Positions 1,919 to 44,192 are shown, counted from the first letter of the stretch. The stretch: DNA of 45,080 bases from a virus (IMGVR_UViG_3300026966_000012); one strand, 5' to 3'. Translations and numbers: made by a program. Notes: generated from the letters alone by a model not told the origin.

Positions 1919-2461
1919 ATGTCTGCGTCACCCGTCTCGTTCGGCCCTGGCGGGGGCACTGGAACGAGCCTCCGCGTCGGACCGGTAATCCTTGAAAACG
2001 CAGTCAAGGTCAACGAGTCTGGTGGTATCAACGCGCCGTCCAAGAGAACTGAGGAGGGATTCGACTGGACGACGAAGGTCCACGCAGAGCCGCGGACAGC
2101 GGAGTTCGAAGCGTGGGCGGAAGTGAACGACGTGACCTCAATCACGGCGCTTCGCGACTCGGGAGAACCCATCTCCGTTGCGTTTGATTTCGTGACGATG
2201 GGGAAGTGCAAGCTCGACGACCTGAACATCGACCACGAGCGCGATCACCCTGAGCACGTCTTCGTTCGAGTTCGGGTCACTGAAGTCTACACGCCCAGCA
2301 CAGAGACGGCGATTCTACGCGTGTCGTCTTCGGATGGGTCTGTTCGGTCGTCCGGGCCCGAGCTGTCAGACCCGTCGCTGGCCCGACCGGAGGAACGGAG
2401 CACGATCGGTGGAAGTGGGTCGGCGATAGACGACGTCCTCGACTGGCTGGGGTTTGAATAG
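1919..2461 (+). CDS. Tail tube initiator / Dit-like tail protein
   Basis: Immediately after tape measure; 180-aa beta-rich acidic protein in the position of tube-initiator genes of contractile tails. Confidence 0.5.
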   Translation: MSASPVSFGPGGGTGTSLRVGPVILENAVKVNESGGINAPSKRTEEGFDWTTKVHAEPRTAEFEAWAEVNDVTSITALRDSGEPISVAFDFVTMGKCKLDDLNIDHERDHPEHVFVRVRVTEVYTPSTETAILRVSSSDGSVRSSGPELSDPSLARPEERSTIGGSGSAIDDVLDWLGFE

Positions 2462-2463
2462 AC

Positions 2464-2790
2464 ATGGCGCTCGAAATCATCCCTATCGACCAAGCAAAGG
2501 CACGGCGGAAGGAGCCAATGCGCCTCGAAGTCTACGACATCGAGCTGTTCCCCGCAGAACGGTTCGAGATCACGTTCGACTGGAACGAGTACATGGACCG
2601 CTGGATAGTGACGTTCACCCACCTCGGGACAGACACACGCTTCTACAAGGGGCCAGCTGACCTCTACCAGGACTATGTCTACGACGACATCGTCGCGTTC
2701 ATGTTCATCGACCCGGCGACCCAGGAGACGGTGGTTAAACCAGAGAACCTTGGCGACACCGTCTGGCTGGCTGTCCTCGAGGTGAGCTAA
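2464..2790 (+). CDS. Small baseplate protein (plug-like)
   Basis: 108 aa; FDWNEYMDRW motif resembles small baseplate plug proteins preceding the hub gene; synteny. Confidence 0.5.
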   Translation: MALEIIPIDQAKARRKEPMRLEVYDIELFPAERFEITFDWNEYMDRWIVTFTHLGTDTRFYKGPADLYQDYVYDDIVAFMFIDPATQETVVKPENLGDTVWLAVLEVS

Positions 2791-3648
2791 ATGGTCTGGC
2801 AACAGTACCGCAGAGTCGAAGCGGGTAACGTGACGATCGAGGAGCTGGACATGGACATCACGATCGTCTACAGTGAGAGCTCTGGCCTCGAGTTCGACGT
2901 GACTATCTGGAATCTGGCCGACGACACGTGGGCCCGAATAGAGGAGGGTGACACCTGTCGTATCACGCTCGGGTGGGAGGAAGGGCCGACGAAGACCGTC
3001 GTGTTCGGGACGGTCGAAAAGTTGATCAAGTCACCAGATGGGAACGACGTTTCGTTCCGCATCAAGGGGAAAGATGAGACAGACCGCGCACTGCGCTATG
3101 GCTTCACGAAGACCTACGTCAACCAGACCTACAGCGCGATTGCCCGGTCGATCGCCGGCGAAATCGGCCTCACTGTCGGCGAGGTGGAGTCGACAAGTGC
3201 AGGCCCCACTCGAGAGTTTACCGTGCAGAAAGACCGACCCGCCCGACACTGGCTCAATCAGTTGGTCGCGAAAACACAGAACAAGACAGACGACCCGTGG
3301 GAGTGGTTCGTTGACTCGGGTAAGCTCTACTTCGTCAGGAAAGACGGACGGAAGGAAGATGCCGTCCGGTTGAGCTTCGAGAACACGCTCATCACCATCG
3401 GTGAGTCGGAGGGAGAGAAAGAGGCCGAACAGGCTGGACTCGACTTTACCGCCCTGTGTGAGCCACGTATCCGAAAGGGCGGGGCTGTCGCCGTCGACAC
3501 GCCACAGTACACTGGCGCGTACAAGGTCACATCGTACCGGTTCAGGTCGAACACAGTCTCCGGCGATCACCAGGTGAGTGGGTCACTCGCACCACTGGGT
3601 GCCAGCTACGAAATCGCGCCAGCAGGCGCACGGGAGTTGCTCGACTGA
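2791..3648 (+). CDS. Baseplate hub protein (gp27/gpD-like)
   Basis: 285 aa; ITIWNL..TW, ITLGW, W+YF motifs typical of hub proteins; lies between plug and spike. Confidence 0.7.
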   Translation: MVWQQYRRVEAGNVTIEELDMDITIVYSESSGLEFDVTIWNLADDTWARIEEGDTCRITLGWEEGPTKTVVFGTVEKLIKSPDGNDVSFRIKGKDETDRALRYGFTKTYVNQTYSAIARSIAGEIGLTVGEVESTSAGPTREFTVQKDRPARHWLNQLVAKTQNKTDDPWEWFVDSGKLYFVRKDGRKEDAVRLSFENTLITIGESEGEKEAEQAGLDFTALCEPRIRKGGAVAVDTPQYTGAYKVTSYRFRSNTVSGDHQVSGSLAPLGASYEIAPAGARELLD

Positions 3649-4466
3649 TGTCGGACATTCCTGGAAAGATCAAGCAGATCATCCGCGAGGAACTTCGTGG
3701 CGTGTACACGATCTCGATCTGCATCGTCGAGGAGTTCGATGCTGCTGAGATGCGCGTTCGGGTAAGTCTCAAGCGCGACAGTGAAGCGATCGCCACGGTC
3801 CCGGTTGCAACCCCGTTCGCGCAGACCGACGGATACGGCATGGCGGTCCCGATAGCCAGCGGTGATGAAGGTCTCCTGTTGCACACCAAAGAGGAGATCG
3901 AAGACCTGACCGTCGACGCTGGACACCAGGATGTCGAGCTCAATCACGTCGCGTTCGACATCAACGACGGGTTGTTTTTCCCACGCTACTGGAACGACAA
4001 CGATGACAAACCAGTCGACATCTACGCCGAGTACAAGAAAGGAGACCTGCTGATCGCCCACGGTGCGGATACGTTCGTGCACATCAAGGGTGACGAACAC
4101 GACGACCCTGGAACGACAACGATTCAGACAGCATCGGGGCCGAAGGTCACACTTGACGAGACGGCAAGTGCAGAGAACGTGACGGTAGAGACAGATAACC
4201 TCTCGCTCACACTCGACGACACGCCCGGGGTAGAGAATATCACGGCACAGACCGAGATGCTCACGCTCGTGCTCGATGATACGTCTGGGGCGGAGACCAT
4301 CACGGCGGAAACCTCGTCGGGAGCCGGTATCAAGATAGAGCATGTGAGCGGTGTGTTCAAACTACTCGACAAGAGTGGACACGGCTTCGTCTCAGACGGC
4401 GCCGGGAACATCACGGCCTACGCGGCGTCGTTCGACATCAACGACCAGGGTACGACCTCGTTATGA
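3648..4466 (+). CDS. Baseplate central spike (Gp138 N-terminal/gpV-like)
   Basis: N-terminal OB-like region (RVRV..., PIASGDEGLLL, DINDGLFFP) followed by repetitive beta-helix segments (LTLDDT repeats). Confidence 0.75.
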   Translation: MSDIPGKIKQIIREELRGVYTISICIVEEFDAAEMRVRVSLKRDSEAIATVPVATPFAQTDGYGMAVPIASGDEGLLLHTKEEIEDLTVDAGHQDVELNHVAFDINDGLFFPRYWNDNDDKPVDIYAEYKKGDLLIAHGADTFVHIKGDEHDDPGTTTIQTASGPKVTLDETASAENVTVETDNLSLTLDDTPGVENITAQTEMLTLVLDDTSGAETITAETSSGAGIKIEHVSGVFKLLDKSGHGFVSDGAGNITAYAASFDINDQGTTSL

Positions 4467-4840
4467 GCCTGTATCTCACGCTGATCGGCGCGAACTGTGA
4501 CGCCTTTGGCCACCCGAATAACTGTCAGGAGCCCGCTCCCGGCGCAGTCCAGGCCACGAGTGCCTGTCCGTTCACGGTCAACGGGACAGAGGTAGCGACC
4601 GAGGCGACGGCTGATATGCACTTAAACTCACACGCCCACGATTACGACTCCGAGAACGGGTGTCACCAGAACCAGAGTCACGATCTCGACCCGGACACAG
4701 GCAAGCTCAGCGATTCGGTCACGGTCAACGGAAGACCGGTCTACCTGACGGACACGGCCGTCGCGAACGACCCGGGATCGGGTGGGGATATCGATATCGT
4801 CGACGCCGGCGGCAACGCGTTTGTCACGGAGAGCCCATAA
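4463..4840 (+). CDS. PAAR-like spike tip protein
   Basis: 125 aa right after spike; TVNG repeats, VTVNGRPV, and His/Cys residues for a metal site; ATGA overlap. Confidence 0.65.
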   Translation: MSLYLTLIGANCDAFGHPNNCQEPAPGAVQATSACPFTVNGTEVATEATADMHLNSHAHDYDSENGCHQNQSHDLDPDTGKLSDSVTVNGRPVYLTDTAVANDPGSGGDIDIVDAGGNAFVTESP

Positions 4841-4911
4841 AATATTAGATACTTTTACAGTCGTAGTAGTGTAATAGTATCAGATCCCGCACTCACTACC
4901 ACCAGAAACGC

Positions 4912-4942
4912 TGCACGTGTATATACACACGCACATATGTAC
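4912..4942 (+). repeat. 31-bp purine/pyrimidine-alternating intergenic element, copy 1
   Basis: TGCACGTGTATATACACACGCACATATGTAC; 29/31 identical to the reverse complement of 39436-39466. Confidence 0.85.
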
Positions 4943-4978
4943 ACATAGCCATTTTGAGACCCCTGAGAGTTCCTCTCT

Positions 4979-4998
4979 GAAAACTGGTATATATTCGA
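4979..4998 (+). promoter_or_regulatory. BRE/TATA promoter (GAAAACTGGTATATATTCGA)
   Basis: GAAA plus TATATA about 26 nt before ATG 5019 (leaderless spacing); near-identical element at 44193-44211. Confidence 0.6.
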
Positions 4999-5018: not shown

Positions 5019-5393
5019 ATGGGAGAGTCCGGGTACGGCAAAACATGGGCCCTGGAAGCCGACGGTGACATCAAGTTCACTGAGCTCAATAGCCCGGAGT
5101 TCATCGAAGGGACACGCGCCGTCGTCCAGGACATGAAAGTCACGCTGGCAACGATACGTGGAGAAGATCCGTTCGACGAGAACCACGGGCTGGACATGTT
5201 CACCGTTGCCGGCGGGTCTGACGAGGAGCTTCGCTTCGCTATCACGGAGGCGCTTCTCGACGACTTCTCGGACGTCATTCAGGAGATCAACGAGATCGAT
5301 ATTAGCGACCCGAACGAGAACCGGATGCGAGACGTTACGATCGACCTCACGCTCGTCGATGACGAGAACTACACCTTCGAGGTGATCGTATGA
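5019..5393 (+). CDS. Baseplate wedge / sheath initiator (gp25-like)
   Basis: 124 aa just before baseplate J; LATIRGEDPFDENHGLD resembles the gp25-like GE.....G motif. Confidence 0.65.
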   Translation: MGESGYGKTWALEADGDIKFTELNSPEFIEGTRAVVQDMKVTLATIRGEDPFDENHGLDMFTVAGGSDEELRFAITEALLDDFSDVIQEINEIDISDPNENRMRDVTIDLTLVDDENYTFEVIV

Positions 5394-7332: not shown

Positions 7333-7869
7333 ATGTCCGAAAACAACAGAGAAGTGGACCTGACGGCTGACGATGGCGAGCTCGACGCTTCTGGTGGTAT
7401 CGAGGCGGAGGACGTCGAGGAGCCGGAGTTCGACCCGGTGGCCGAAGGGAAAGAAGAAGCCAAGCGCGTCCTGAACGCGGTCGGTGGAGACAGCGAGTAC
7501 GACCGCGCGGCGAGCGCACTGGCGCAGAAGCAACAGAGCGTCGAATCCATGTCCCAGCAGCACCAGGCCGCTGTGAAAAACATCCAGGCGCTGGAACAGC
7601 GTATCGAGGGACTGGACCTGACCATCAGTCGCCTGGAGGATGTCGACGATGACACGACCGTCTTCCAGCAGCTGGAGGGCGGGGTAATCATCGAGGTTGT
7701 CGACGACGACACTGACGGTGTGAAGGAGAGCCTGGAAGACGCACGCGAATCGCTAACCGAACAGATCGAAGACCTGCGCGGTCAATCAGAGGCGCTCGAA
7801 CGTGGGGTGCAGAAGAACCACTCTGCGATCCAGTACCTCGAGATGTACCGCGACATGAACGAAGAATAG
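7333..7869 (+). CDS. Prefoldin-beta-like coiled-coil protein, candidate tail-fibre chaperone
   Basis: Coiled coil, beta-hairpin (LEDVDDDTTVFQQLEGGVIIEV), coiled coil, matching prefoldin subunit architecture; alternative start 7327. Confidence 0.55.
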   Translation: MSENNREVDLTADDGELDASGGIEAEDVEEPEFDPVAEGKEEAKRVLNAVGGDSEYDRAASALAQKQQSVESMSQQHQAAVKNIQALEQRIEGLDLTISRLEDVDDDTTVFQQLEGGVIIEVVDDDTDGVKESLEDARESLTEQIEDLRGQSEALERGVQKNHSAIQYLEMYRDMNEE

Positions 7870-11640: not shown

Positions 11641-12578
11641 CTGTCACGCCCACATATGTCGAGGATGTCCCGGAGAACCGTGTCGAACTCGCCCCGTTTG
11701 CGCGATTCAACTGGAAAACGGCCGAGAGTAAAGAGATGTGGAAGGATGCGCTCCACAACGCCGAGTTCGCAAAGTCGGAGGCTGAGTGGCGATCGGTCCT
11801 GAGCGATAAGACCGACCGGAAGGCGGCGATCATCCATATAAACAACTTCAACCGCGAGAAGTGGCTCAGGCGGATGGGTGAGCATGGTCTCGCCTACCGC
11901 GACATCCGATACTCGGAGCCGTACGACGGGTTCGCGCACAAGTTCCACCCGACGACGATAGACGACCCGCGACGGAACACATACGCGGTGATCGCGAAGG
12001 ACGATGATATCGCGGATAAGATGGAGGAAGCCGAGCTGGAGATGGAAGGGCACGAGCGACATGGAACGGTCGGTGAGCTCCTGGGGTTCCCAGACTGTTG
12101 CCGTGCACAGTTCAACGACATCTGGGTAGATAACTGGGACCGAGGGCTCACGGACCCCATGTACGAAGTCGCGTGCAACACCCCGTCGGCCCGCGAGATA
12201 ACTGATGCCGACAACGTTCGACTGGAGGAGCCGGAAGCGTACACGAACGTCATGTGGCGATACTTCGGCTGGTCGTTCATCACGCACATCCCGTGCTCGT
12301 TCGAGTGCGAGGAGTCGACTGAGATAGGGCAAGCTCGGCACGAGATCATGCACGAGGCTGGGTACGGAGAGGCCGCCGACATGCTCTACGGCTGGCTGGA
12401 CCAACCGTTCGTCTGGGACGCACTCCATTCGATTGCGAACGTTCGCAACATGCACGTGACGGCCACTGCGGGGACGTCATCGTACTGGTCGAAGAAGCGA
12501 GTCGAATGGCGCCGGGAACACTTCCCGCAGATGAAGCCGTTCTACACGGAAGAAGACCTCGCGCGCATCCACTCATGA
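11637..12578 (+). CDS. Cys-motif protein coupled to rSAM (DUF483-like)
   Basis: GELLGFPDCC and HIPCSFEC motifs; ATGA overlap with the rSAM stop. Confidence 0.55.
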   Translation: MTVTPTYVEDVPENRVELAPFARFNWKTAESKEMWKDALHNAEFAKSEAEWRSVLSDKTDRKAAIIHINNFNREKWLRRMGEHGLAYRDIRYSEPYDGFAHKFHPTTIDDPRRNTYAVIAKDDDIADKMEEAELEMEGHERHGTVGELLGFPDCCRAQFNDIWVDNWDRGLTDPMYEVACNTPSAREITDADNVRLEEPEAYTNVMWRYFGWSFITHIPCSFECEESTEIGQARHEIMHEAGYGEAADMLYGWLDQPFVWDALHSIANVRNMHVTATAGTSSYWSKKRVEWRREHFPQMKPFYTEEDLARIHS

Positions 12579-12985
12579 TCGAGCACCTGCGACCGATCGA
12601 GCCCATCGAGACGGCCCTCCCCGACGAGTGCATCAACCCCTCAACCCACCTACCACCAGAAACGGTTGAGCCGCCACGAGAGGCGGTCCTGGCGGATGAG
12701 GATGTGTCTGTTGAGGTCAGAATCAAACACGACTACGACTGGATGCACGTGGACCTCCCCCGATTCGATGGCTGTGATCGGCGAGAAGCGATCTGGACGG
12801 CGGTCTGGTTTGCCCGCGCTATTGGTGTCCCGGGGACGTGGAAAGAGCAGTTGCGCGTCGCGGTTGGTGACAACGACATGGAGACATACAGACTGGGCGC
12901 GCTGTACCGATACGCAGAGTTTCCACTTCGCGAGCGCGAAACGAACTATGACAAGTACGGTGAAAATCCGGAGTACGGACAATGA
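12575..12985 (+). CDS. Hypothetical protein
   Basis: ATGA overlaps on both sides; acidic, haloarchaeal codon usage; start placed at 12575 rather than 12506. Confidence 0.65.
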   Translation: MIEHLRPIEPIETALPDECINPSTHLPPETVEPPREAVLADEDVSVEVRIKHDYDWMHVDLPRFDGCDRREAIWTAVWFARAIGVPGTWKEQLRVAVGDNDMETYRLGALYRYAEFPLRERETNYDKYGENPEYGQ

Positions 12986-13491: not shown

Positions 13492-14161
13492 CGTTCGGGT
13501 CAGCGGCATCATGACCCTCCGGAACGCGGAGCAGGTCGGCTATCCGTATGTGCCATCGATCCTGTCCGTTCTCCCAATCGTAGACGAGTTTCTCATCAAC
13601 GACGGTGGGAGTGACGACGGGACGTGGGAGACACTCTGTACACTGGCCGATTCCTTCGACAAGATCGAGCTCTACCAGATACCAGATGGTGAACCGGCCG
13701 CGCAGTGGGATATGGTGGATAGGCAACTCAACGAGCTGATCGACGAGGCCGATGGCGACTGGTTGATCGAATCACAGTGTGACGAGGTGTGGCCACGGTC
13801 GAGCCTACATACGGTGAATGAGATCATGCGTTCTGACACCGAGTATGCGTCTATCAGACAGCCGCGACTGAGTAACGGCGAATGGGACGCCGTGTCGAAC
13901 TATGACTACTGGACGGTCCGTTGCGTCAAGAACGCTCCTGACCTCGAAAGCTACGAGGGTGGCGATTCGTTCCACACAGGCGGGTATTCGAGCCCGACTG
14001 AGGGATACACCAGCCACAACGTACCACCAGAAACGAAGATAGACGCTCCGTTTTGGCACATTCACGACTTCGATCGGGTCGCCCACGCCGAGCGGCACCT
14101 GTTCTGGTTAGCGACAGAAAGCGACGCCCGTCGTAGGCTCTATGAACGGACTGTAGAGTGA
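13484..14161 (+). CDS. Glycosyltransferase family 2 (GT-A fold)
   Basis: LRNAE...SIL...DEFLINDGGSDDGT motif, then GDWLIESQCDE (DxD-like region). Confidence 0.85.
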   Translation: MSDVRVSGIMTLRNAEQVGYPYVPSILSVLPIVDEFLINDGGSDDGTWETLCTLADSFDKIELYQIPDGEPAAQWDMVDRQLNELIDEADGDWLIESQCDEVWPRSSLHTVNEIMRSDTEYASIRQPRLSNGEWDAVSNYDYWTVRCVKNAPDLESYEGGDSFHTGGYSSPTEGYTSHNVPPETKIDAPFWHIHDFDRVAHAERHLFWLATESDARRRLYERTVE

Positions 14162-15311: not shown

Positions 15312-15492
15312 GACCTTCAACGGCATCAGTGCTTATTCGAGCCCTCACGACGCTCTATTCGGGCATTTCGCGGCTCCTTACGGCGCCTGATCAGCGACAT
15401 GTGACTACCCAGTGTACGTCAATCGCTGTCTTAGGGCGTGGTGCGCAAAGATGTGGGAAAACAGGTATATCCAGACTTACGTGTACTAACAG

Positions 15493-18193: not shown

Positions 18194-19381
18194 ATGACGA
18201 AGATCGACCTATTCACCGACTACGTCGAATATCTCCAGTCAAAGGAGATCGCGTACGCAGAGACGTACATCCCCTACTACCTGTGTAGTGTGGGATGTCA
18301 CATGCTGAACATCAGGCAACAGAGCCTCAAACGGAACGGTAAGCGCGGTATCTACGCCGAGCTCGGGTCGTACCCGAACCTCCGGCTGAACACGATGATG
18401 GTCGCACCCCCGGGCTTTAGCAAGACGTTCTTCATGGAGCTGATGCTGGACCCGGACATCGGCATCATCGGCGGGACGACGATCCCGACGAAGATGGTCC
18501 AGAACATGACCGAGGCGGCGTTCGTCGGCTCCGATGGCGGGGGCGACGACGACGACTACGACATGGGCCTCGCGGAGAAGTACAAAGAGGGAATCCTGGG
18601 CTGTGAGGAGTTCGACTCCCTGGCGAAGGTCATGCAGACAGACCACTCAGGAAACCTCGACAACATGCTGCTCACCGCGCTGGACTCGGGCCGCGTCAGG
18701 AAAGACATGGCCCACGCGAACATCAACTACGACACCGACGTGACGCTGTTCGCAGCCACACAGCCCATGCGGATGGACCTGACGTCCGGGTTCGCCCGGC
18801 GGTTCATCTTCATGAAGTTCTACCCGTCGCCCGAGCAGATCAACGAGATGCGCCAGTCGAGGCGGCGCGGGCGGGGTCGTGACGCCGACTTCGGCCAGCT
18901 CCAGAAGTTCAAGAACGAGCTCGGGACGAAGTTCGATTCGAAGGTCGTCAACATCGACCAAGTACGCGGGCTGGAGCAGCTCGACAAAATCTTCGACGAC
19001 GTGCGAGTGCCGCACTTCGAGGAGAAGGTCTACGAGCGGATGGCGATGGGATATTCCGTCCTCAAAGAAGGGTCAGTCGAAGAAGACGCTGATACGACCT
19101 ACCTCGAGATCCAGCCGACGCGCGAGTTGCGCCACCTCCTGCGCCAGTCAATGGAGTGGCGTGACGCCCTGATGCAGGGTGTCGAAGGTGACCAGGTGAT
19201 CTCGGTCCTGCGAAACACGAAGGACCACTCGATGCCCAAAGAGGAGCTGAAATCGTTCCTCCAGATGTATTCGATGTCCCAACCGCAAGTGGACAAGATC
19301 ATCCAGGACCTGCGCCGCGCACGGATGGTTGAGACCGAGGTCGACAACAACAAGACGACATACGTGACTCTCAACGCCTGA
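18194..19381 (+). CDS. MCM-like AAA+ helicase
   Basis: Walker A APPGFSKT, MTEAAFVGS (h2i-like), GILGCEEFDSL (Walker B), FAATQP (sensor 1), FARRF (Arg finger); C-terminal wHTH-like region. Confidence 0.75.
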   Translation: MTKIDLFTDYVEYLQSKEIAYAETYIPYYLCSVGCHMLNIRQQSLKRNGKRGIYAELGSYPNLRLNTMMVAPPGFSKTFFMELMLDPDIGIIGGTTIPTKMVQNMTEAAFVGSDGGGDDDDYDMGLAEKYKEGILGCEEFDSLAKVMQTDHSGNLDNMLLTALDSGRVRKDMAHANINYDTDVTLFAATQPMRMDLTSGFARRFIFMKFYPSPEQINEMRQSRRRGRGRDADFGQLQKFKNELGTKFDSKVVNIDQVRGLEQLDKIFDDVRVPHFEEKVYERMAMGYSVLKEGSVEEDADTTYLEIQPTRELRHLLRQSMEWRDALMQGVEGDQVISVLRNTKDHSMPKEELKSFLQMYSMSQPQVDKIIQDLRRARMVETEVDNNKTTYVTLNA

Positions 19382-19452
19382 CCGCTCACTACCACCAGAA
19401 ACGAGAGCACGAACGCCCCTGGCCAGGGTCACATGGCCACCATACAACACGA

Positions 19453-21411: not shown

Positions 21412-22572
21412 ATGAGTACCGTTAGCCACGACGAGCTTGACGTGAGCGTGCCGCTCTACGTCGAGCTGTTCAAGACGAGAGACGACTGTTTCGCGATTCA
21501 GCGGCGCGACGGCGCGTACAGTCCGATCCACAAAGAGTTCGGGGCCAAAGAGGTCGAACAGCACGTTTCTGGTGAACGGACGTTCGGCCAGTACCTCGTG
21601 AAACCGGTCGACAACACGGTCAAAGTCGCAGCCATCGATAACGACATCGACGACGAGTCGGGCGCGCCGCTGGAGAACGCACTCGCAGCAGCCGTCCTGG
21701 AGAAGAAGCGTGCGATCAACTGGGGGCTCCGTCCGAATCAGGTGTGGATAGAGTTCTCCGGTCGGCGTGGGTACCACACGTGGTTCTTCTTCGACCCACC
21801 GATACAGGCCGCTCTCGCCAAGCAGTTCCTCGATCGACTGGTCGGAAACACGGAAGACAACCGGATGTCGGTCGACATCGATGGCGGGCACCTTGAGGTG
21901 TTCCCGAAACAGACAGCCCTCTTGGAAGGCGAGTACGGCAACCTGATCAAAACACCGTTCGGGTACCACCAGAAGACTGGCAAGCGCATGGTGTTCGTCG
22001 ACAACGACGGCACCCCAGTTGACGACCAGAACGCGATCTTGCGGGCCGCGCTCCGCAACCGCATCGAGCCAGACGTTGTTGGTGGTATCCTGGAGGAGTT
22101 TGGTGATGATGCAGAGCAGATCGTCCAGGTATCCGAAGCACAGGCCGCACGACGTGGCCGAGATAGTGCGGAGGTCGTCGACGAGTCACTCGGGATTCGG
22201 CCATGTATCGAGAAGGCGTTGCGCGGTGAGGCGGCGACGCCGAACGACCCTGAGGGACAGTTGCGCGGCGACGTTGGTCACAACGTGCGTGTCGCGGCGG
22301 CGACTGAGTTGTTGAACAACGGCGTCTCTGTCGACGAGGCGGTCGAGTATTTCCGCCGATTCGAGAACTTCGACGAGGAGATCACACGAACCAATCTGGA
22401 GAACATCAAACGGCTCGGTCACAAGCCATGGAGATGTGAAACACTGCGACAGAAGTGCGGTGCGTACGTCGAGGACTGCTCGTGTCCAAAGACGTCGGAC
22501 ATCGACCCGGTGACGTCGATGGAGCTGAACCACGAGCGATACGGAAACCAATGGAGTCAAACAGATGAATAG
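21412..22572 (+). CDS. Archaeo-eukaryotic primase fused to PriL-like C-terminal (Fe-S) domain
   Basis: AAIDND (motif I), EFSGRRGYHTW (motif II), EVFPKQ...GNLIKTPFG; C-terminal RPCI...HNVR...FDEEIT...PWRCETL...C..C like the primase large-subunit CTD. Confidence 0.85.
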   Translation: MSTVSHDELDVSVPLYVELFKTRDDCFAIQRRDGAYSPIHKEFGAKEVEQHVSGERTFGQYLVKPVDNTVKVAAIDNDIDDESGAPLENALAAAVLEKKRAINWGLRPNQVWIEFSGRRGYHTWFFFDPPIQAALAKQFLDRLVGNTEDNRMSVDIDGGHLEVFPKQTALLEGEYGNLIKTPFGYHQKTGKRMVFVDNDGTPVDDQNAILRAALRNRIEPDVVGGILEEFGDDAEQIVQVSEAQAARRGRDSAEVVDESLGIRPCIEKALRGEAATPNDPEGQLRGDVGHNVRVAAATELLNNGVSVDEAVEYFRRFENFDEEITRTNLENIKRLGHKPWRCETLRQKCGAYVEDCSCPKTSDIDPVTSMELNHERYGNQWSQTDE

Positions 22573-28348: not shown

Positions 28349-28512
28349 CCCCGTCCCACGCGGTCCCTCACACGTTCCTTTTGTTGGATTACTCAATCCC
28401 CCCAGCCACAGCTCCGATAGCTCTCAGGCGATCCTACGGCCTCCTACGACCACTCACTCACATACCACCAGTAGCGCCTGTTTCCGCAATTGCGCACCGC
28501 CCGCGTCCCGTC

Positions 28513-28914
28513 TTACATCGGCGCTGACGCGGCCGGGACCTCGACGGCACCGGGCTCGATATAGCACACGTCACACGACTCGATCGGCCGCTTGGTTCCC
28601 GAGAAGACGAAGTGGTTGTAGACGAAGGGGTTGTACACGACGAATCGCGTCGGCTCACCGCCCAGAAACGCATCTTTCCGGTCAGTTTCGTCGTACCAGT
28701 TTCCACGAGCAAAGGCATGGACGTTCCGCCGCCCCTCCTTTCGGACCCGCTCGACACCTGATGGCTGGACGATAAACTCGACGTCTCTGATGACGATAGA
28801 ATCGACGTGGGCGATCACGCGCCCGTATCGCTCGTAGGGCTCGCGCGACCGAACGCTGAGACAGTCCTGGTGAAGGTTCTGGTAGATGTCGACCTTCATG
28901 TACTCTACCGTCAT
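28513..28914 (-). CDS. Conserved phage hypothetical protein
   Basis: YQNLH...SVR...GRVIAH...V.F.V...G..RV..EGRRNVHAF pattern recalled from phage proteins; only credible minus-strand gene. Confidence 0.7.
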   Translation of the reverse strand: MTVEYMKVDIYQNLHQDCLSVRSREPYERYGRVIAHVDSIVIRDVEFIVQPSGVERVRKEGRRNVHAFARGNWYDETDRKDAFLGGEPTRFVVYNPFVYNHFVFSGTKRPIESCDVCYIEPGAVEVPAASAPM

Positions 28915-28960: not shown

Positions 28961-30004
28961 ATGCCTGAGATAGAGGGCGAAGAACCGGAAGCAGACGACG
29001 CCGCAACGGACGATCTTGATATCGACGAGATCGAAGATATGTCACTTGAAGACCTACAGTCGGAGGTCGAAGGTGAGGCGGACGTCGGGTTCGACAGCGG
29101 TATCAGCATCTACGACCCGGTGATGCTCCCGCTCAACGAGCTCACAGCAAACAACTGGAATCCGAACGAGATGTCGTCGGACGAGTTCAATCGACTGTGT
29201 GAGAACATCGAAGACGACGGGTTCCTCGCGCCGATTCAGGCGGTCCCCGTAGACGAAGACGGTGAAAACCTCCAGTTCGAGGATGACGTCTCGGCGGAGG
29301 ATATCGTCGAGGAGATGGACCACGCACGTATCGTCGGTGGCGAACACCGGTGGAGTGCGTCGAAGGTTGTCGGGCTCACAGAACTTCCAGTCATCCTCGT
29401 CCCGAACAAGGACGAGGAGTGGGAGAAGCTCGCGACCGTCAGGATGAACGCGATCAGTGGGTCGATGGACCCGATTCAGTTCGCTGAGCTCGTCGAGGAG
29501 CAGCGGGAGAAGTACGATGACGACAGACTCAAGCACATGCTCGGGTTCGCTGGCGAGGACACGCTGTTCGACTCGGTGATGGAGGACATCAAAGAGAACG
29601 TTCCGGAGGATGTGAAAGATGAGCTCGAGGAGGCTGAAGACGAAATCGAGACGATCGAGGACCTCTCTGAAGTGCTGAACCGCATCTTCCGCGAACACGG
29701 CGACCAGCTCGACTATCACTTCATCACGTTCGCCTACGGTGGCCAGGAGAACGTCATGTACCGGACAGACGACGACCTGTGGGCCCGTGTTGTCGACGTG
29801 AACGAGCGGATGGAGGAGCTCGATGCCTCGGCGATGGAAGTGTGGCGCTACCTCCTGACCGAAGGTCCCGTCGACGACGCCCTGGAAGAAGCGGAGGGGA
29901 CGGCTGAAGTCTCGATGGACGATGTCGCTGACGACCCGGACGACCAGGTGGGTGACCTGGAGCCGGGTGACCTGGACCACTCCGTCGACGAAGCAGATGC
30001 CTGA
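28961..30004 (+). CDS. ParB/Sulfiredoxin N-terminal domain protein
   Basis: NNWNPNEM...L..NIEDDGF..PI and IVGGEHRW..A...GL..LPV motifs. Confidence 0.85.
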   Translation: MPEIEGEEPEADDAATDDLDIDEIEDMSLEDLQSEVEGEADVGFDSGISIYDPVMLPLNELTANNWNPNEMSSDEFNRLCENIEDDGFLAPIQAVPVDEDGENLQFEDDVSAEDIVEEMDHARIVGGEHRWSASKVVGLTELPVILVPNKDEEWEKLATVRMNAISGSMDPIQFAELVEEQREKYDDDRLKHMLGFAGEDTLFDSVMEDIKENVPEDVKDELEEAEDEIETIEDLSEVLNRIFREHGDQLDYHFITFAYGGQENVMYRTDDDLWARVVDVNERMEELDASAMEVWRYLLTEGPVDDALEEAEGTAEVSMDDVADDPDDQVGDLEPGDLDHSVDEADA

Positions 30005-30131: not shown

Positions 30132-30187
30132 CGCTGCTGGTGGTAGGTGCTGGGCGGGGTTAGTAATAGTTCTGACCTATAAGAAAA

Positions 30188-34365: not shown

Positions 34366-35373
34366 ATGGTAGATGTCTTGATCACAGGCGGTGTTGGGTT
34401 CATCGGGAGCCACCTCGCTGAGGCGTTCATCGAGGACGGACATCGCGTCACCGTGATCGACAACCTCGACCGCACCTACGACACGGCGATCAAGAAGCGA
34501 AACATTGCACTGCTCACGAACCTCACTACCACCAGCAGCGGTGAGTTCGAGTTCGTCGAGGGAAACATCCGTGACGAGGTATTGCTCGAGAAGCACGTGT
34601 CGCACGCAGACTACGTGTATCACGAAGCAGCGAAAGCCGGCGTCGGCCCGAGTGTCGACAGCCCACATGCCTACCTGGAGACGAACGTTGCCGGGACACT
34701 GGACGTGCTGCAAGCGGCGGCTGATGCTGACGTTGAACGCGTGATCAACGCGAGCTCGTCGTCGGTCTACGGTGATGTTCACCAGGTGCCCATCCCAGAA
34801 CACCACCCCACGAAGCCGGCCTCGCCATATGGACTGACGAAGCTGGCGACTGAGCACTACTGTCGGCTGTTCACTGAGCTCCACGGCCTCCCGACTGTGA
34901 GCCTTCGGTATTTCACTGTCTACGGGCCACGGATGCGCACCGGGATGGCCGTTCCCGATTTCACAGCCCGCGCCGTCGACGATGATGCGACGTTTACGTG
35001 CTTCGGTGATGGCGCGCAGGTACGCGATTTCACCTACGTCGACGACGTTGTCGAGGCGAATCGACAGCTCATGCACACGAGTGTCGCAGACGGTGAGGTG
35101 TTGAACATCGGTTCTGGTGGTACCGTGTCGGTGTCGGGGCTCATCGACCTCGTCCAGGATGCTGTCGGTGTCGAGAAAGAAGTAACCCACCTGTCGAGCA
35201 GAGCTGGGGATGCTGAGCTCACCCACGCCGATCTGCGAAAGACCAAGCGTCTCATCGGCTACAGTCCAGAGACGCCCATCGACGAGGGCATCGAGAAGTT
35301 CGTCTCGTGGTACCGCGACAACGAAGACTGGTATCACGATCTCGCGCTGGCGGAGGCTCTTTCACATGAGTAG
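34366..35373 (+). CDS. NAD-dependent nucleotide-sugar epimerase/dehydratase (extended SDR)
   Basis: TGGVGFIGSH, ASSSSVYG, YGLTK (YxxxK), LRYFTVYGPR, RDFTYVDD. Confidence 0.95.
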   Translation: MVDVLITGGVGFIGSHLAEAFIEDGHRVTVIDNLDRTYDTAIKKRNIALLTNLTTTSSGEFEFVEGNIRDEVLLEKHVSHADYVYHEAAKAGVGPSVDSPHAYLETNVAGTLDVLQAAADADVERVINASSSSVYGDVHQVPIPEHHPTKPASPYGLTKLATEHYCRLFTELHGLPTVSLRYFTVYGPRMRTGMAVPDFTARAVDDDATFTCFGDGAQVRDFTYVDDVVEANRQLMHTSVADGEVLNIGSGGTVSVSGLIDLVQDAVGVEKEVTHLSSRAGDAELTHADLRKTKRLIGYSPETPIDEGIEKFVSWYRDNEDWYHDLALAEALSHE

Positions 35374-36631
35374 TCGCCGGGTTCCAGACGCTGCAACCCC
35401 TACCCCCTCGGGGGCGAATACGGACCTCCAGCGAGTGTGCATCATCGGCGGGGGTGGATACATGGGTCTCCCGTTCTCTCTCGCGGTTGCCGACGCTGGC
35501 CATGACGTTACAATCGTGGACATCGACGAAGATCGTCTCGCTCAAATAGACAATGGCGAGTTTCCATTCCGAGAGCCTGGCGGCCAGGAGATCCTCGACG
35601 AGATATCCATCGTGACCAGCATGGAGCACGAAGTCGTCGCTGACGCCGACGTGGTGGTTCTCACGGTTGGGACGCCCGTCGACAAGTACCAGACCCCGGA
35701 TATGAGCATCGTGTTCACGGTCATGGACGCGATCGAACCGTACACGTCCGAGGAGCAACTCCTGGTCCTCAGGTCGACTGTCGCTCCTGGTGTCGGTGAC
35801 GCGGTCAATCAGCGGACGGACGCCACGGTTGTGAACGCACCCGAACGAGCGCGCCAGCACCACATGCTCGAGGACCAGGTGGATGTACCCCAGCTGATCG
35901 GCGCACCCACGATGGAATCCTACGAGCGGGCGAAGGCATTCTTCGAGTCGTTCATGAACGCCGATGTCAAGCCCCGTCTCTCACGGCGTGAGGCGGAGCT
36001 CGCGAAGATCTTCGGCAACGTGTGGTTGTACGTCACCTTTGCCCTCGCAAACGAATACTGGGCGCTCACGGAGCACCACGGCGAAGGTGACTCTGTCCAC
36101 CGCTTACTCGACATCGCGACTGAAGATGTCGACTGGTTCAACCCGCCAGGACCGGGGGCGAATACTGGCGGACCATGTCTCCGTAAGGACGGCTGGTTTG
36201 TCTCGACAGCGTTCCCGGCGACGGAGCTGTACGAGACGGCCACGTCGATCAACAACGCGATGCCGAGCCGAGTCCTTGACGGGCTCGAACAGCGAGACGC
36301 CAGACAGCCCGAGAAGATAGCGGTCCTCGGGATGACGTTCAAGCCCGACGCCGACGACATGCGAGGGTCTCTGGCCGATCAGATGCACTACGAGATCGAG
36401 CGTCGTGGGTACGGCGACCGGACGGTGTTCGTCGACCCGAATGTCGATGAGTACGCCGACGTGGAGGAGCTGGACGGAGCCGACTGGGTGATCGTCCTCA
36501 CACCCCACCAGGAGTTCCGTGACTTCACCGCGGTGTCCACCGCTGCTGGTGGTACCGCCTGGTATGCGGACATCTGGGGGTCATGGGACGTCACGCAAGA
36601 GCGGAGCGATAACGGATACTTCAAATACTGA
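35366..36631 (+). CDS. UDP-glucose/GDP-mannose dehydrogenase family nucleotide-sugar dehydrogenase
   Basis: IIGGGGYMG, VGTP, LRSTV.PG, PER, AELAK, catalytic GGPCLRKD, LGMTFKPDADDMR.S. Confidence 0.95.
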   Translation: MSSRRVPDAATPTPSGANTDLQRVCIIGGGGYMGLPFSLAVADAGHDVTIVDIDEDRLAQIDNGEFPFREPGGQEILDEISIVTSMEHEVVADADVVVLTVGTPVDKYQTPDMSIVFTVMDAIEPYTSEEQLLVLRSTVAPGVGDAVNQRTDATVVNAPERARQHHMLEDQVDVPQLIGAPTMESYERAKAFFESFMNADVKPRLSRREAELAKIFGNVWLYVTFALANEYWALTEHHGEGDSVHRLLDIATEDVDWFNPPGPGANTGGPCLRKDGWFVSTAFPATELYETATSINNAMPSRVLDGLEQRDARQPEKIAVLGMTFKPDADDMRGSLADQMHYEIERRGYGDRTVFVDPNVDEYADVEELDGADWVIVLTPHQEFRDFTAVSTAAGGTAWYADIWGSWDVTQERSDNGYFKY

Positions 36632-36632
36632 C

Positions 36633-38258
36633 ATGCCAACTGGAAATGAGATAGCGAAGGACACGCCTGTTGAGAGCGACGAACACTGGAACTTCGACAA
36701 CGGTCTGCGGATCGTCGTCTACCCGGTCCTGGCGGCGAACACGATGATCGAAGCCAGCCCGGCGTACCAGCACCTCAAGCAGACGATGCGCTGGTTCGAC
36801 GAGCACTATGACTTCCCGGTGTTCTGGCACATCCTCTGGCCGGAGACGGGTCGTGACGATGCCCGCTACCGCTATCAGTGGAAGAACCACTCGGAGCGCC
36901 TGTGGCTCGAACGCCGCGACGACATCGAACTGATCGAGACGACGTTCCACGCGTGCCAGACAACGGACATGGGGCTGTGCAACCGCGAGCTCCGAGAAGT
37001 GATCAACCAGTCCGAGGGCACTCGCTTCTACGACTTCATCTTCAACCAGAAGCCCGGTGCAGCGGCTGAGATCATGGATACCGTACGCGGTCGTCGAGAG
37101 GAGGACGAACTGTGTCCGGCGATCATGAACACACACTGTATGCCACCGACCTGGGACAAGACGTTCGGCGACTACTACCGCCTGCGGATGGCGTCGGGGA
37201 TGATCGGCCCGGTGACGCACAACTTCTTCCAGACCGACCACCAGCTCGACAACACACTCGCGGCGCTACGCGAATACTTCAACGGGAAGACGCTCCAGAA
37301 GTTCAAGGACCAGTCGTCGGTGATGGGTACCGGCGTCGACGTGGACTACCTGGATGGGTTCGCATCCGACCTGGACGGCGGCGACGGCGATCTCGCCGAA
37401 GACAGTCCGTTCATCGTCACGTTCAACAGCAAAGTGTACAAAGAGCGTAACTACGAGGAGTCCTGGCGTATCCTGGACACGCTCCACTCGTCACCGATCG
37501 ACTGCAAGGTGCAGCTGGTGGTGCCGAACCTCGGACAGGGGAAACTCCTCACTGAGGTCGAATACTCCTCGACGGCCGAGCACTTCGACACGTACTCGGG
37601 GCTCAAGAAGACGGAGTACCTGGAACAGTCGGCCAAGGCGAAAATGTCGCTCAACTCGGTGATCAAGACCGACTTCAACCAGACACTCGCAGAAGTCGCA
37701 TACGTCGGCGCCCTCCCGGTGATGCGCGACGCCGACTGGTCACGGTTCATGTTCGGCGACGACTACCCGTTCCTGTACAAGGGCGAGGAGCACGGGAAGA
37801 AGATGGCCCTGCACGTCGCCGCTAACATCGACGAGTACCGTGCCGAGTGGATACCGAAACTGCGGACTCGTCTCCGGGAGCGTCACCACGCTGCGCTGTA
37901 CTTCAAGGAGATACTCGAGCAGGTGCATCGGCTACGCGAGGACGTGACCTGGGGTAACGAATGGTTCGACCTCCCACCGATGCACAAGCGGTTCGAGATC
38001 AACGAGAACAGTGGTCGGGTAACCCGGGAGGCTGTAGTCCTCCAGGCGCTCCGTCGATGCGACGATGTGTTCACGATGGAAGACTTCGCCGAGAAGTACC
38101 GCCAGGTCAGTGAGTCCAAGGCGAAGATCCTCGAGCCCCATGACGGCCGATCGCCAGCGCCACACCTCTCGTACTACCTGGCTCTGAAAAAGTACGGCGT
38201 CAAGGATCTGTGCGACGGCCCACTCCCGACGCTCGACAAGTCGGAGCTGGATGCGTAA
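36633..38258 (+). CDS. Putative GT-B fold glycosyltransferase with C-terminal extension
   Basis: Two-domain layout; donor-binding-like segment SLNSVIKTDFNQTLAEVAYVGALPV; directly after the nucleotide-sugar genes. Confidence 0.6.
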   Translation: MPTGNEIAKDTPVESDEHWNFDNGLRIVVYPVLAANTMIEASPAYQHLKQTMRWFDEHYDFPVFWHILWPETGRDDARYRYQWKNHSERLWLERRDDIELIETTFHACQTTDMGLCNRELREVINQSEGTRFYDFIFNQKPGAAAEIMDTVRGRREEDELCPAIMNTHCMPPTWDKTFGDYYRLRMASGMIGPVTHNFFQTDHQLDNTLAALREYFNGKTLQKFKDQSSVMGTGVDVDYLDGFASDLDGGDGDLAEDSPFIVTFNSKVYKERNYEESWRILDTLHSSPIDCKVQLVVPNLGQGKLLTEVEYSSTAEHFDTYSGLKKTEYLEQSAKAKMSLNSVIKTDFNQTLAEVAYVGALPVMRDADWSRFMFGDDYPFLYKGEEHGKKMALHVAANIDEYRAEWIPKLRTRLRERHHAALYFKEILEQVHRLREDVTWGNEWFDLPPMHKRFEINENSGRVTREAVVLQALRRCDDVFTMEDFAEKYRQVSESKAKILEPHDGRSPAPHLSYYLALKKYGVKDLCDGPLPTLDKSELDA

Positions 38259-39287: not shown

Positions 39288-39425
39288 ATGGTCGAACACG
39301 GACTGTTGTTCTATCGGACGACAGACGACAGAAACCGGAACGTGTACGTATTCGTCACAGAGGACGGCCGAGAACTGCACCTACCACCAGAAACGACTGT
39401 GAGTGAGTTGCAGAACAGGCTCTAA
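39288..39425 (+). CDS. Microprotein (45 aa, absent from ORF track)
   Basis: ATG directly after the previous TAG; MVEHGLLFY...ELQNRL. Confidence 0.45.
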   Translation: MVEHGLLFYRTTDDRNRNVYVFVTEDGRELHLPPETTVSELQNRL

Positions 39426-39435
39426 ACCCCTGCAC

Positions 39436-39466
39436 GTACATATGGGCGCGTGTATATACACGTGCA
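39436..39466 (-). repeat. 31-bp RY-alternating intergenic element, copy 3 (inverted)
   Basis: Reverse complement is TGCACGTGTATATACACGCGCCCATATGTAC; contains the 14-bp palindrome CGTGTATATACACG. Confidence 0.85.
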
Positions 39467-39563
39467 CGACAACCTGACATGTTTTGCCCGTGCGTTTATA
39501 CTACCAGAACCTGAATAGGTAAGTGAGCGACAGCCGCGTCCGTACGCGGTTCGAACCTGATAG

Positions 39564-41751: not shown

Positions 41752-42398
41752 CGCGCGGACAGAAGACTAACTACACGGGCAAGGACACGTCAGTCTCGAT
41801 CACGCAGACACAGGCCGCTGACCAGTCCCAGCTCACGATCACGAACGACCGACTTCGCGGCGAGTGGTCGCCCCGAGCGATCGTCGAACGGCGATACAAG
41901 AAGATGAAAAATCGCGGGCCCACGACAACGTTCCTTCCCATCAGTCCACGAGGGGCGCTCCGTGGGATGTCGGAGAAGTACGGCGAGTCGTTCATCATCG
42001 GCTACGCGCTGGTCCGGCCGAAGGTCAAGACGTGGACGACTCGTGACGACAAGGATGCCGTCTTCAAGCAGTTCGAGGACAAGGACGAAGCGTACCTGTG
42101 GGAGAAGCGTCGGCCGACATACATCCCCAAGGACCGCGTCACGCCCCGATTCATCATCGAGGGCTACGGGTACAACTGGCGTCAGCCCACAGCGTCGAAG
42201 TGGGGCGGGAAGTTCTACGTCATGGACGCCGGGAAGATGCTCTCAGCCAGAGATGGTTTCCGGATCGTCGGCGTCGTAGAGGTACCACCAGGAACGGAGT
42301 TTGCGTACCCGTTCGGGAGCTCTGCTCGACTGAAAGAACGGCTCGAGGACGATGCTATCGACTACACACTCAACCCCGACTTCCGGAGGGTCGCATGA
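41748..42398 (+). CDS. Hypothetical basic protein
   Basis: ATGA overlaps at both ends; unusually Lys/Arg-rich for this genome. Confidence 0.65.
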   Translation: MTRGQKTNYTGKDTSVSITQTQAADQSQLTITNDRLRGEWSPRAIVERRYKKMKNRGPTTTFLPISPRGALRGMSEKYGESFIIGYALVRPKVKTWTTRDDKDAVFKQFEDKDEAYLWEKRRPTYIPKDRVTPRFIIEGYGYNWRQPTASKWGGKFYVMDAGKMLSARDGFRIVGVVEVPPGTEFAYPFGSSARLKERLEDDAIDYTLNPDFRRVA

Positions 42399-42904: not shown

Positions 42905-43236
42905 TGCCTGGGCCGATCAGCTTTAGTCACCCGCTCGCATGGGACTTTCTCACCACATACGGGTACGTTGCGACGTTCCGTACGAGACGACGAAAGTCGG
43001 GGACGTGTGACACCTGGTGCAACCGCGGTCGTGGCGAGCCCAAAGAGTTCGACGTCCACGTCCAAGAGGTCGGTCATGTCGATCTGCACGACGGCGGTCT
43101 TCGGACGCTCAGACACTTCTCGTCCATCAGCGGGATGGAGACGAGCTCGGTCTGGCGAGCGGCCATCGAGGAGGTGAACGGAGAGCTTCCCGACGAGGGG
43201 TGGCTCTACCTGGTGACGGTGACCGAAAATGAGTGA
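42904..43236 (+). CDS. ASCH/PUA-like domain protein
   Basis: ISFSHP...GYVATFRTRR..G...V.V.EV...SGM.....W...I pattern; TGATG overlap. Confidence 0.5.
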   Translation: MPGPISFSHPLAWDFLTTYGYVATFRTRRRKSGTCDTWCNRGRGEPKEFDVHVQEVGHVDLHDGGLRTLRHFSSISGMETSSVWRAAIEEVNGELPDEGWLYLVTVTENE

Positions 43237-43417
43237 CCAGTATGTCGTCATAGACCTGGACGATGTAGAGGACATCCGCCGCGAAGGGGAAGACATCGTT
43301 GCGGTGACGCTGTCCGTGGCCGACGGGCCGTTTGACGACCCACACGACGCCGGGTTCAGGGCACGAGATCACTGGAGCTACGAGTTCGTAGGGTTGACGA
43401 TGGGGAGGTATGACTAA
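43229..43417 (+). CDS. Small hypothetical protein
   Basis: 62-aa acidic, coupled ORF. Confidence 0.55.
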   Translation: MSDQYVVIDLDDVEDIRREGEDIVAVTLSVADGPFDDPHDAGFRARDHWSYEFVGLTMGRYD

Positions 43418-43952
43418 CGCTGCTGGTGGTAGTGAGTTCGACTTCGCTGAGGTCGTGCCTCGTGATCGGGATGTGTACACGGCGACCGACCACCTGATGA
43501 AGCGCGTTCGGATGTCCGGTCGGTTCATCACAGAGGAGCTCGTCCGTGACCTGATCGCGACCGGTGAGATCAAAGGTAACCGGCCCGGGAAAGGTGGGTG
43601 GGTGTTCGAAAAGCAGTACGACGGTGTCCTGTTCAAGCTGATCTGCGACATCGGTGCGGACCTCGAGCCCCGTATCGTCACCGGCGTCTCGGAGATCGTG
43701 GACCGGGGTGCGGCACTGTCCTCGGCACGCTGGTCTGAATCGACCGTCCATCAGGTCGAGCTTCGGTCTGCGCTGAGTAGAGACACACATGAGGTACCCA
43801 AAGAGCGGATGCTCGGCCTCGAATGTCTCGACCCGATCGCGGTGAAAGGGCACAGAGTCATCACTGACAGTGAGTGGGACTTCGTCCGGTGTACCGAGTG
43901 CGGCATGGAAACGCGATCGAAAGCCGAGCTCTCGAGCACCGCCTGTAACTGA
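43410..43952 (+). CDS. Hypothetical protein, DUF4258/RelE-like N-domain plus Zn ribbon
   Basis: TDHLMKRVRMSGRFITEELVRDLIATGE and C-terminal HRV...CTECG; GGGAGG SD. Confidence 0.5.
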   Translation: MTNAAGGSEFDFAEVVPRDRDVYTATDHLMKRVRMSGRFITEELVRDLIATGEIKGNRPGKGGWVFEKQYDGVLFKLICDIGADLEPRIVTGVSEIVDRGAALSSARWSESTVHQVELRSALSRDTHEVPKERMLGLECLDPIAVKGHRVITDSEWDFVRCTECGMETRSKAELSSTACN

Positions 43953-44084
43953 GCCCGATGCCCCACCACCTTACCCAACGAACACCACTCACGTGGGAGC
44001 GCGGGGGTCCATGAGCCTCCTATCCCCCATATTCAGGTGTTTCAGGCCCTTATTTTTGTCCGACACCCGGCGATGCCATCTTCG

Positions 44085-44117
44085 GACCGTAACCCCCACC
44101 CTCTCGGGGTCGCAAAC
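44085..44117 (+). repeat. 33-bp C-rich intergenic element, copy 3
   Basis: GACCGTAACCCCCACCCTCTCGGGGTCGCAAAC. Confidence 0.7.
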
Positions 44118-44192
44118 CCACCTCCAAGAGGATATGTCACCTGACACTCTCGCACTCACTACCACCAGCCGCGTCTATTGGCTATATGTACA

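Follow-up and report, generated by a model that had tools for sequence, protein, structure and literature searches.

The element and its gene content

We analyzed a stretch of 45,080 nucleotides of the viral genome IMGVR_UViG_3300026966_000012, called the window in the following, in which the nine-base word TACCACCAG recurs as the core of a dispersed family of conserved sites. The genes of the window are nearly all located on the plus strand. They encode baseplate proteins, a radical-SAM/glycosyltransferase cluster, and a replication block comprising a RecA-like ATPase, an RNaseH-like exonuclease, PadR, an archaeo-eukaryotic primase (AEP) and a 974-aa GHKL ATPase. Also encoded are an L5-gp82-like protein (minus strand), a ParB_N-domain protein, sugar-nucleotide enzymes, and ERCC4 and PD-(D/E)XK nucleases.

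Relatives were found by means of the primase and of a 579-aa protein, and eight elements were compared: the window, L004/L120, C4, L009, L032, L118, L117, and L119. L120 is a further part of the same contig as L004 (Ga0207718_100144); the virus represented by this contig is referred to as the TG virus and that of the window as the TA virus, and both were assembled from the same samples. C4 is the 148,857-nt replicon CP058532.1 of Halorarum halophilum. Its primase is 61% identical to that of the window, and the two elements are syntenic, baseplate genes included. Since C4 is a separate 148.9-kb replicon in a cultured host, the element is temperate and plasmid-like, and this syntenic, primase-bearing replicon indicates that the element in the window is a virus-like plasmid-prophage of ~150 kb.

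The AEP primase, which has a PriL-like C-terminal domain, is present in every lineage examined. It was found in only one of 401 sampled Halobacteria genomes, and a scan of genome contigs for the primase returned distant primases only. IMG/VR contained no match to the extended 19-nt motif, CTCACTACCACCAGAAACG, and no relative of the primase. A nucleotide search of phage records gave no match to the window, and in a protein search of cultured-phage records only haloarchaeal tailed viruses, including HGTV-1, matched, with ~25-30% identity in the GHKL/HSP90-like protein. The 579-aa protein (window 36519-38258) is 92% identical to that of the Halorarum plasmid and 55% identical to that of Ga0207718_100144, elsewhere the closest relative, which reflects mosaicism. 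A conserved 395-aa protein of the replication block (window 18194-19381) has a 701-aa orthologue in the TG virus (L004 5844-7949) with a LAGLIDADG intein-like insertion.

An over-represented and element-specific nine-base word

Among the strand-merged 9-mers of the window, TACCACCAG ranks first, above low-complexity words of the CGACGA type. It occurs in 20 exact copies, 11 on the plus strand and 9 on the minus strand, without a polarity switch along the sequence. In comparison, 0.49 copies are expected under an order-3 Markov model, and dinucleotide shuffles of the 45,080 nt yielded 0.18 copies on average and never more than 2. The 27 one-mismatch variants of the word add up to 21 copies, none of them exceeding four, which corresponds to the background level. 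Because these variants are so scarce, recognition of the nine bases appears to be essentially all-or-none. Information content extends from about -5 to +14 around the core, with the consensus (C)TCAC TACCACCAG mAnCG. The flanks are weaker than the core (upstream CTCAC or CGA, downstream A at +11 and CG at +13/+14) and suggest a footprint of ~14-19 bp. The site is asymmetric and lacks dyad symmetry. Three groups of copies show exact identity over 18-19 nt, namely 4892 and 19385, 12647 and 39378, and 34522 together with the reverse copies at 14581 and 43418.

The original prediction for this window had reported at least 20 copies (11 forward, 9 reverse), far above chance, and its coordinates, the three groups of extended identities and the peptide readings of the word (HLPPET, AAGGSE, LTTTSS, YHQK, and WWY) all proved to be correct. 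It had also proposed that selection acts on the DNA and not on the protein, and had named two observations that would refute it: comparable counts after codon-preserving shuffling and enrichment of the word in haloarchaeal chromosomes. Codon-preserving shuffles failed to reproduce the counts, with 1.4-2 copies expected against 15 observed. Synonymous-codon shuffles within the window genes gave 2.0 copies on average and at most 6; for the curated window genes, the expectation was 0.91 sense and 0.50 antisense copies (observed 6 and 9), and for the genes of C4 it was 0.74 sense and 4.4 antisense copies (observed 10 and 20). The reverse copies in the window use the Gly-Gly frame in six of nine cases.

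Enrichment in chromosomes was looked for in 61 Halobacteria genomes and in the Halorarum chromosome, and none was found. In H. halophilum, the pattern ATGCCACCAS is present 32 times on the 149-kb element and seven times on the 3.68-Mb chromosome, and the seven chromosomal copies do not show the flank consensus. The word CACTACCACCAG occurs 19 times in the 61 Halobacteria genomes (~200 Mb), which is below the reversed control, and six times in the window alone. The word is specific to the element and is not enriched in haloarchaeal chromosomes.

Each lineage uses its own dialect of the word

In each relative, the most over-represented word was a variant of its own with one or two letters changed, built on the common skeleton T-R-C-Y-R-H-C-A-V followed by nnnCG. 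The TG virus uses TGCCACCAG, with seven copies in L004 and further ones in L120 (11 in 21.6 kb). C4 carries 37 copies of TGCCACCAC and 15 of TGCCACCAG, giving 52 sites on 148.9 kb. L009 has six copies of TGCCACCAC, L032 six of TGCCAACAG, L118 eight of TGCCATCAA, L117 seven of TGCTATCAR, and L119 four to five of TGCTGTCAG. The matrix of dialect counts by element is nearly diagonal across the eight elements and contains at least seven distinct dialects, whose likeness to each other follows the primase tree. The first 50 kb of HGTV-1 (L111, 1-50000) contained no word comparable to this family; its own over-represented words, TCAGGGTC (13 copies vs. 1.2 expected) and CGAAACCTTT (7 vs. 0.09), are unlike it.

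The closest relative of the window is the TG virus (L004/L120), with 84% nucleotide identity. At nine of ten shared sites, TA in the window corresponds to TG, and the upstream flank usually changes from CAC to GA. The other 72 core positions show no change at all despite a background divergence of 16%. Of the 13 window sites that can be aligned to C4, 9 are kept, each with TG in place of TA. Because all other lineages have G at position 2, the A of the window dialect is derived. The degenerate copy in the primase gene at 22079 is true to dialect at position 2 in the window and in L004. Sites were also gained: two window-specific ones (21964 in the primase gene and 38738) arose by F to Y changes (TTC to TAC) in conserved proteins. 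Others, namely the one at the junction preceding the RNaseH-like gene and the one that follows the 177-aa gene, persist in most lineages through every change of dialect. At the former junction (19390), the site is kept in L004, C4, L009, L118, and L117, each time in the dialect of the element. The orthologous sites, the concerted TA/TG change, the gains of sites and the shared samples show a cis-acting site that is under strong purifying selection and whose sequence would track a lineage-specific reader.

Placement of the sites relative to genes and promoters

The sites are more evenly spaced than random positions, with a coefficient of variation of the gaps of 0.62 in the window (0.93 for random placement, P=0.02) and 0.71 in C4 (0.97, P=0.005). 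They are three- to four-fold enriched in non-coding DNA, which holds 6 of the 20 sites in the window (7.8% of the sequence) and 22 of the 52 in C4 (16%). The median distance of a site to a gene boundary was 72 nt in the window, compared to 166 nt for random positions (P=0.013), and 66 nt in C4, compared to 144 nt (P=0.0003). About 10 of the 22 intergenic C4 sites lie 1-16 nt past a stop codon. Between genes, most sites point in the direction of the genes (5 to 1 in the window, 17 to 5 in C4). Of the five C4 sites that do not, three adjoin minus-strand genes, according to rough gene calls. Within genes, both orientations are enriched.

A conserved promoter-like module, GAAAACTGGTATATA, carries its TATA-like part ~27 nt upstream of start codons, the geometry of leaderless archaeal promoters. 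C4 contains 12 copies, all on the plus strand, and the module is also present in L004, L009, and L119. Six of the 12 modules in C4 have a site 15-120 nt upstream, compared to 0.43 expected, or 0.67 when placement was confined to non-coding DNA (P<5e-5). In the window, the site at 4897 and the module at 4979 repeat this arrangement of site followed by promoter. The gene-end bias, the co-orientation and the association with promoters together link at least the intergenic copies to transcription units.

These data show that the sites are real, that selection acts on them at the level of the DNA, that they are specific to the element and to the lineage and conserved in position, and that they are linked to gene boundaries and promoters. 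The individual sites and modules of the window are listed in Table 1.

Table 1. Copies of the word and promoter-like modules in the window. Unless stated otherwise, the feature is an exact copy of TACCACCAG.
Coordinates	Strand	Location	Relatives and remarks
2019..2027	-	inside gene 1919-2461, antisense	read S-G-G-I
4897..4905	+	intergenic, 56 nt past stop codon	73 nt upstream of promoter module at 4979
4979..4994	+	promoter-like module GAAAACTGGTATATAT	TATA-like part ~27 nt before ATG at 5019, leaderless mRNA geometry
7391..7399	-	within gene, 64 nt from start	absent from C4
8431..8439	-	mid-gene	absent from C4
12651..12659	+	76 nt into gene 12575-12985 (HLPPET)	L004 orthologous site TGCCACCAG
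14022..14030	+	in GT2 gene	sole shared site still TACCACCAG in L004
14586..14594	-	50 nt before gene end	L004 orthologue TGCCACCAG
15457..15471	+	second copy of promoter module, precedes gene 15493	no nearby motif copy in window; C4 has one 37 nt upstream
19390..19398	+	intergenic, 8 nt past stop codon, upstream of RNaseH-like gene	
21964..21972	+	in AEP primase gene (YHQK)	window-specific gain, F to Y (TTC to TAC)
22079..22087	-	in primase gene, degenerate copy TACCACCAA	full site in C4, L009
26448..26456	+	55 nt before end of GHKL ATPase gene	L004, C4 orthologues TGCCACCAG
28463..28471	+	intergenic, convergent junction in conserved spacer	orthologues in L004, C4, L118, L117
30112..30120	+	ancestral-dialect copy TGCCACCAG, inverted pair with 30137	TG in L004 too
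30137..30145	-	intergenic, downstream of ParB_N gene	L004 orthologue TGCCACCAG
34527..34535	+	in epimerase gene (LTTTSS)	C4 orthologue TGCCACCAC
35114..35122	-	in epimerase gene	C4 orthologue TGCCACCAG
36546..36554	-	overlap of UGDH gene end and gene 36519 start	C4 reads TGCCACCAA
38738..38746	-	within gene (WWY)	window-specific F to Y gain; C4, L120 read AACCACCAG
39382..39390	+	intergenic, 94 nt past stop codon	followed by purine-pyrimidine palindrome
42283..42291	+	within gene	L120, C4 orthologues TGCCACCAG
43423..43431	-	13 nt into gene 43410-43952	L120 orthologue TGCCACCAG
44160..44168	+	intergenic, 9-17 nt before PD-(D/E)XK nuclease gene	orthologues L120 TGCCACCAG, C4 TGCCACCAC

Several other elements were observed in the neighborhood of the sites. 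Alternating purine-pyrimidine palindromes of 30-40 nt (CTGCACGTACATAT...GTACGTGCAC) are located at 4911-4945 and 39430-39470 of the window and at 5249, 72353, and 100624 of C4. They are intergenic and often lie just downstream of motif copies; they could be prone to form Z-DNA or cruciforms, or could represent a second binding site. A TTTCCGC...CGCACCGCCCCGC module follows some intergenic copies at convergent gene junctions. The spacer 28349-28512 between convergent genes (165 nt; L004 16600-16765, L008 17823-17987) is unusually conserved and holds a TTTCCGC...CGCACCGCCCGC module, which recurs after motif copies at other convergent junctions of C4. A short GC-rich hairpin at 19416-19428, ~17 nt downstream of the copy preceding the RNaseH-like gene, is kept in four lineages (window, L004, L008, and L009) with differing sequences.

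A co-evolving DNA-binding protein as possible reader

An element-encoded, sequence-specific reader best accounts for the enrichment on the element, for dialects that change in concert and for the conserved positions of the sites. We tentatively favor, at a little less than an even chance, the view that the sites are the cognate sites of a co-evolving DNA-binding protein that would serve as a genome-wide silencer or insulator of transcription, or as an immunity factor, in a temperate plasmid-prophage, with dialects driven by heteroimmunity. The 9-mer would then be the invariant core of an asymmetric site of ~14-19 bp. As the sites are single and asymmetric, the reader is probably a monomer, and its footprint is probably double-stranded, as the flanks carry information out to +14. 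When the specificity of the reader shifts, the dozens of dispersed sites would follow, so that each lineage acquires a dialect of its own. Protein bound at gene ends and upstream of promoters might block or insulate transcription in the manner of stoperators, and divergence of the dialects would allow co-circulating relatives to escape mutual control. Three properties of this reader are our inference from the sequences: its protein nature, its encoding by the virus and its action on transcription. The original prediction of a cis-acting site about every 2 kb is supported by the shuffles, the host tests and the orthologous lineage-specific variants. Its open list of functions can be narrowed, with the data favoring a DNA-binding factor linked to transcription. 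The PadR and ParB-like proteins suggested there as readers look unlikely, as their DNA-binding or core regions are nearly unchanged across dialects.

Several observations weigh against this interpretation. Between 58 and 70% of the sites lie inside genes, where antisense copies exceed sense copies (9 to 6 in the window, 20 to 10 in C4), whereas the stoperators of phage L5 function in one orientation only. Half of the promoter modules lack a nearby site, and the distance between site and promoter varies from 23 to 92 nt, so that the site is not a fixed-phase operator. The enrichment at gene ends could reflect a mere tolerance of the 9-mer at these positions, and the gene calls for C4 are our own rough ones, based on GC content at third codon positions (GC3). 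The reader was not found among the candidate proteins screened, and no repressor of the gp71 type (helix-turn-helix plus stoperator domain) was recognized among the window open reading frames with Pfam and PHROGs.

Candidate readers and alternative explanations

PadR was rejected as reader, its winged-helix region being unchanged across four dialect lineages. We also screened 16 orthologous proteins for dialect-correlated substitutions, i.e., columns that differ between the window and L004 yet are conserved between C4 and L009. The only outlier was the L5-gp82-like protein, with a ratio of 1.08 compared to 0.25-0.75 for the rest. Its gene (28513-28914, minus strand) is the only clear minus-strand gene of the region, and the protein belongs to the family PF25735 (E=3e-32) of Mycobacterium phage L5 gene 82; it is beta-rich in a low-confidence model. 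It was nevertheless discarded as reader: its variable Arg-rich stretch does not track the dialect of L118, the protein is missing from the syntenic place in L117 and L119, and the AlphaFold model is unusable (predicted local distance difference test, pLDDT, 54). A fast-evolving 132-aa protein considered as DNA binder turned out to be a membrane/coiled-coil protein. A guide RNA as reader was rejected as well, since the spacer 28349-28512 has no convincing consensus structure on either strand; the window contains no Rfam hits and no tRNAs. A role of the sites as recombination linkers was likewise dismissed, as the similarity breakpoints of the window with L004, L008, and L009 lie away from the sites, save one at a distance of 63 nt.

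The ParB_N-domain protein encoded at 28961-30004 raises the question of whether the sites serve partition or genome organization, as in the ParB-parS, KorB-OB, or Noc-NBS systems. A clamp-like protein would then segregate, compact or position the plasmid-prophage, and the dialects would result from selection against incompatibility of co-resident relatives, as for the parS sites of P1 and P7. The element is an extrachromosomal replicon, the GEHRW segment of the protein can be aligned to the GERRW motif for CTP binding of ParB, and the even spacing and the tolerance of both orientations would suit such a function. Moreover, the only inverted pair of the window (30112/30137, 16-nt spacer) lies ~110-130 nt downstream of the ParB_N gene, and L004 shows the same arrangement. 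However, parS, OB, and NBS are palindromes of 13-16 bp bound by dimers, whereas the sites described here are single and asymmetric. The ParB_N protein hardly varies in its core from one dialect lineage to another, which speaks against it as reader, and no helix-turn-helix was detected in it. Fifty evenly spread sites would also be unusual for plasmid partition, which in addition predicts neither the intergenic orientation bias nor the promoter link. Overall, we consider this explanation unlikely.

The UvrD-like helicase and the RecB-family PD-(D/E)XK nuclease, encoded by separate genes of the element, suggest another function, resembling that of Chi. A viral helicase-nuclease would read the word, probably in single-stranded form, and stop degrading or switch to recombination, so that viral DNA with variable ends would be spared and recombined and host DNA lacking the word destroyed. 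E. coli Chi is GCTGGTGG. The reverse complement of the core contains CTGGTGG, i.e., seven of the eight bases of Chi, and the octamer TACCACCAGC is complete in nine copies of the window. The exact core, its presence in both orientations, the even spacing and the frame-independent placement would fit, as would the lack of enrichment on the host chromosome (7 copies on 3.68 Mb vs. 32 on the element) and the copy that immediately precedes the nuclease gene in the window, L120, and C4. On the other hand, the match to Chi was noticed post hoc and may be due to chance, and RecBCD and AddAB are not known from haloarchaea. No RecC- or AddB-like recognition subunit has come to light, none having been sought. 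The flank conservation to +14 suggests a double-stranded footprint, and the intergenic orientation follows transcription, with a link to promoters. We therefore regard a Chi-like function as quite unlikely, and the more specific proposal that the word is a virus-encoded self/non-self tag read by these two enzymes as improbable. If true, the latter would be the first Chi-type system of archaea, with a specificity that the virus, not the host, determines.

The AEP primase, which diverges along with the dialect, might recognize the word in its template, or the sites might serve helicase loading, in either case on both strands every few kb. The asymmetry of the site, its even spacing and its presence on both strands at intervals of ~4-5 kb per strand would be compatible with a role in replication. 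Known primase recognition sequences comprise ~3 nt and not 9-14. Besides, no strand switch marks an origin, the primase shows no excess of dialect-correlated substitutions, and the intergenic orientation bias and the promoter link would be left unexplained, which makes this role very unlikely.

Finally, a viral enzyme such as a DpdA-like transglycosylase might install a modified base at the word. The exact core resembles the specificity of a modification enzyme, but known phage DpdA enzymes act in short and loose sequence contexts, and modification alone would not account for a 40-100-fold over-representation, the conserved positions, the even spacing and the promoter link. This possibility seems highly improbable to us.

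Comparison with known systems

The eight elements use at least seven dialects, and dozens of sites were rewritten together between two viruses from the same brines with 84% identity. This would constitute a natural experiment in which the specificity of a DNA reader shifts jointly with that of its many sites, and it probably also shows how related archaeal viruses become mutually immune or compatible. As one member is available in culture (H. halophilum plasmid CP058532.1), the reader and the effects on transcription, stability and DNA survival are directly accessible. In a literature search, we found no genome-wide system of cognate sites or stoperator-like elements for archaeal viruses or plasmids, and a string search of the literature for the dialect words returned unrelated primer matches only.

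The DNA uptake sequences (DUS) of Neisseria, which occur in dialects, and the uptake signal sequences (USS) of Haemophilus share with the sites an exact core of 9-12 nt with weaker flanks, the occurrence in both orientations and in any frame, a density of about one copy per 1-3 kb, and lineage dialects at orthologous positions. Unlike the word described here, which marks a virus-like plasmid, they mark the cell's own chromosome for the competence machinery. Chromosome-wide enrichment as known for DUS and USS was found neither in H. halophilum (7 copies on 3.68 Mb vs. 32 on 149 kb) nor in the 61 Halobacteria genomes. Chi sites are likewise over-represented, exact, asymmetric and frame-independent words of ~8 nt, with CTGGTGG in common, but the chromosome of the host is rich in them and their strand bias follows replication, neither of which applies here. 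KorB operators of RK2 and Noc sites resemble the present ones in that a single protein has many dispersed sites per replicon, some at promoters and some intragenic, and in that a ParB_N-domain gene is present; they differ in that the sites here are asymmetric and the ParB_N protein is invariant with dialect.

Of the documented systems, the operator/stoperator network of Cluster A mycobacteriophages (L5 gp71, TipsytheTRex Rep; PMC9283540, PMC6550527) comes closest. The L5-type repressor acts as a monomer; its more than 20 asymmetric 13-mers lie in promoters and in short gaps between genes, and it binds them in an orientation-dependent manner. The motifs diverge along with the repressor and define immunity groups (PMC9283540, PMC6550527). 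Unlike in Cluster A, the host is an archaeon with a transcription machinery of the TBP/TFB type, the element is ~150 kb in size, and only 30-42% of the sites are non-coding, most being located in genes on either strand. The two systems have in common an asymmetric, non-palindromic site with a sharp consensus, 20-50 copies spread over the whole temperate genome at a density of one per 2-3 kb or so, the location of some copies at promoters and in short gaps between genes, where most of those described here point with transcription, and syntenic sites that are kept among relatives while the motif diverges by lineage.

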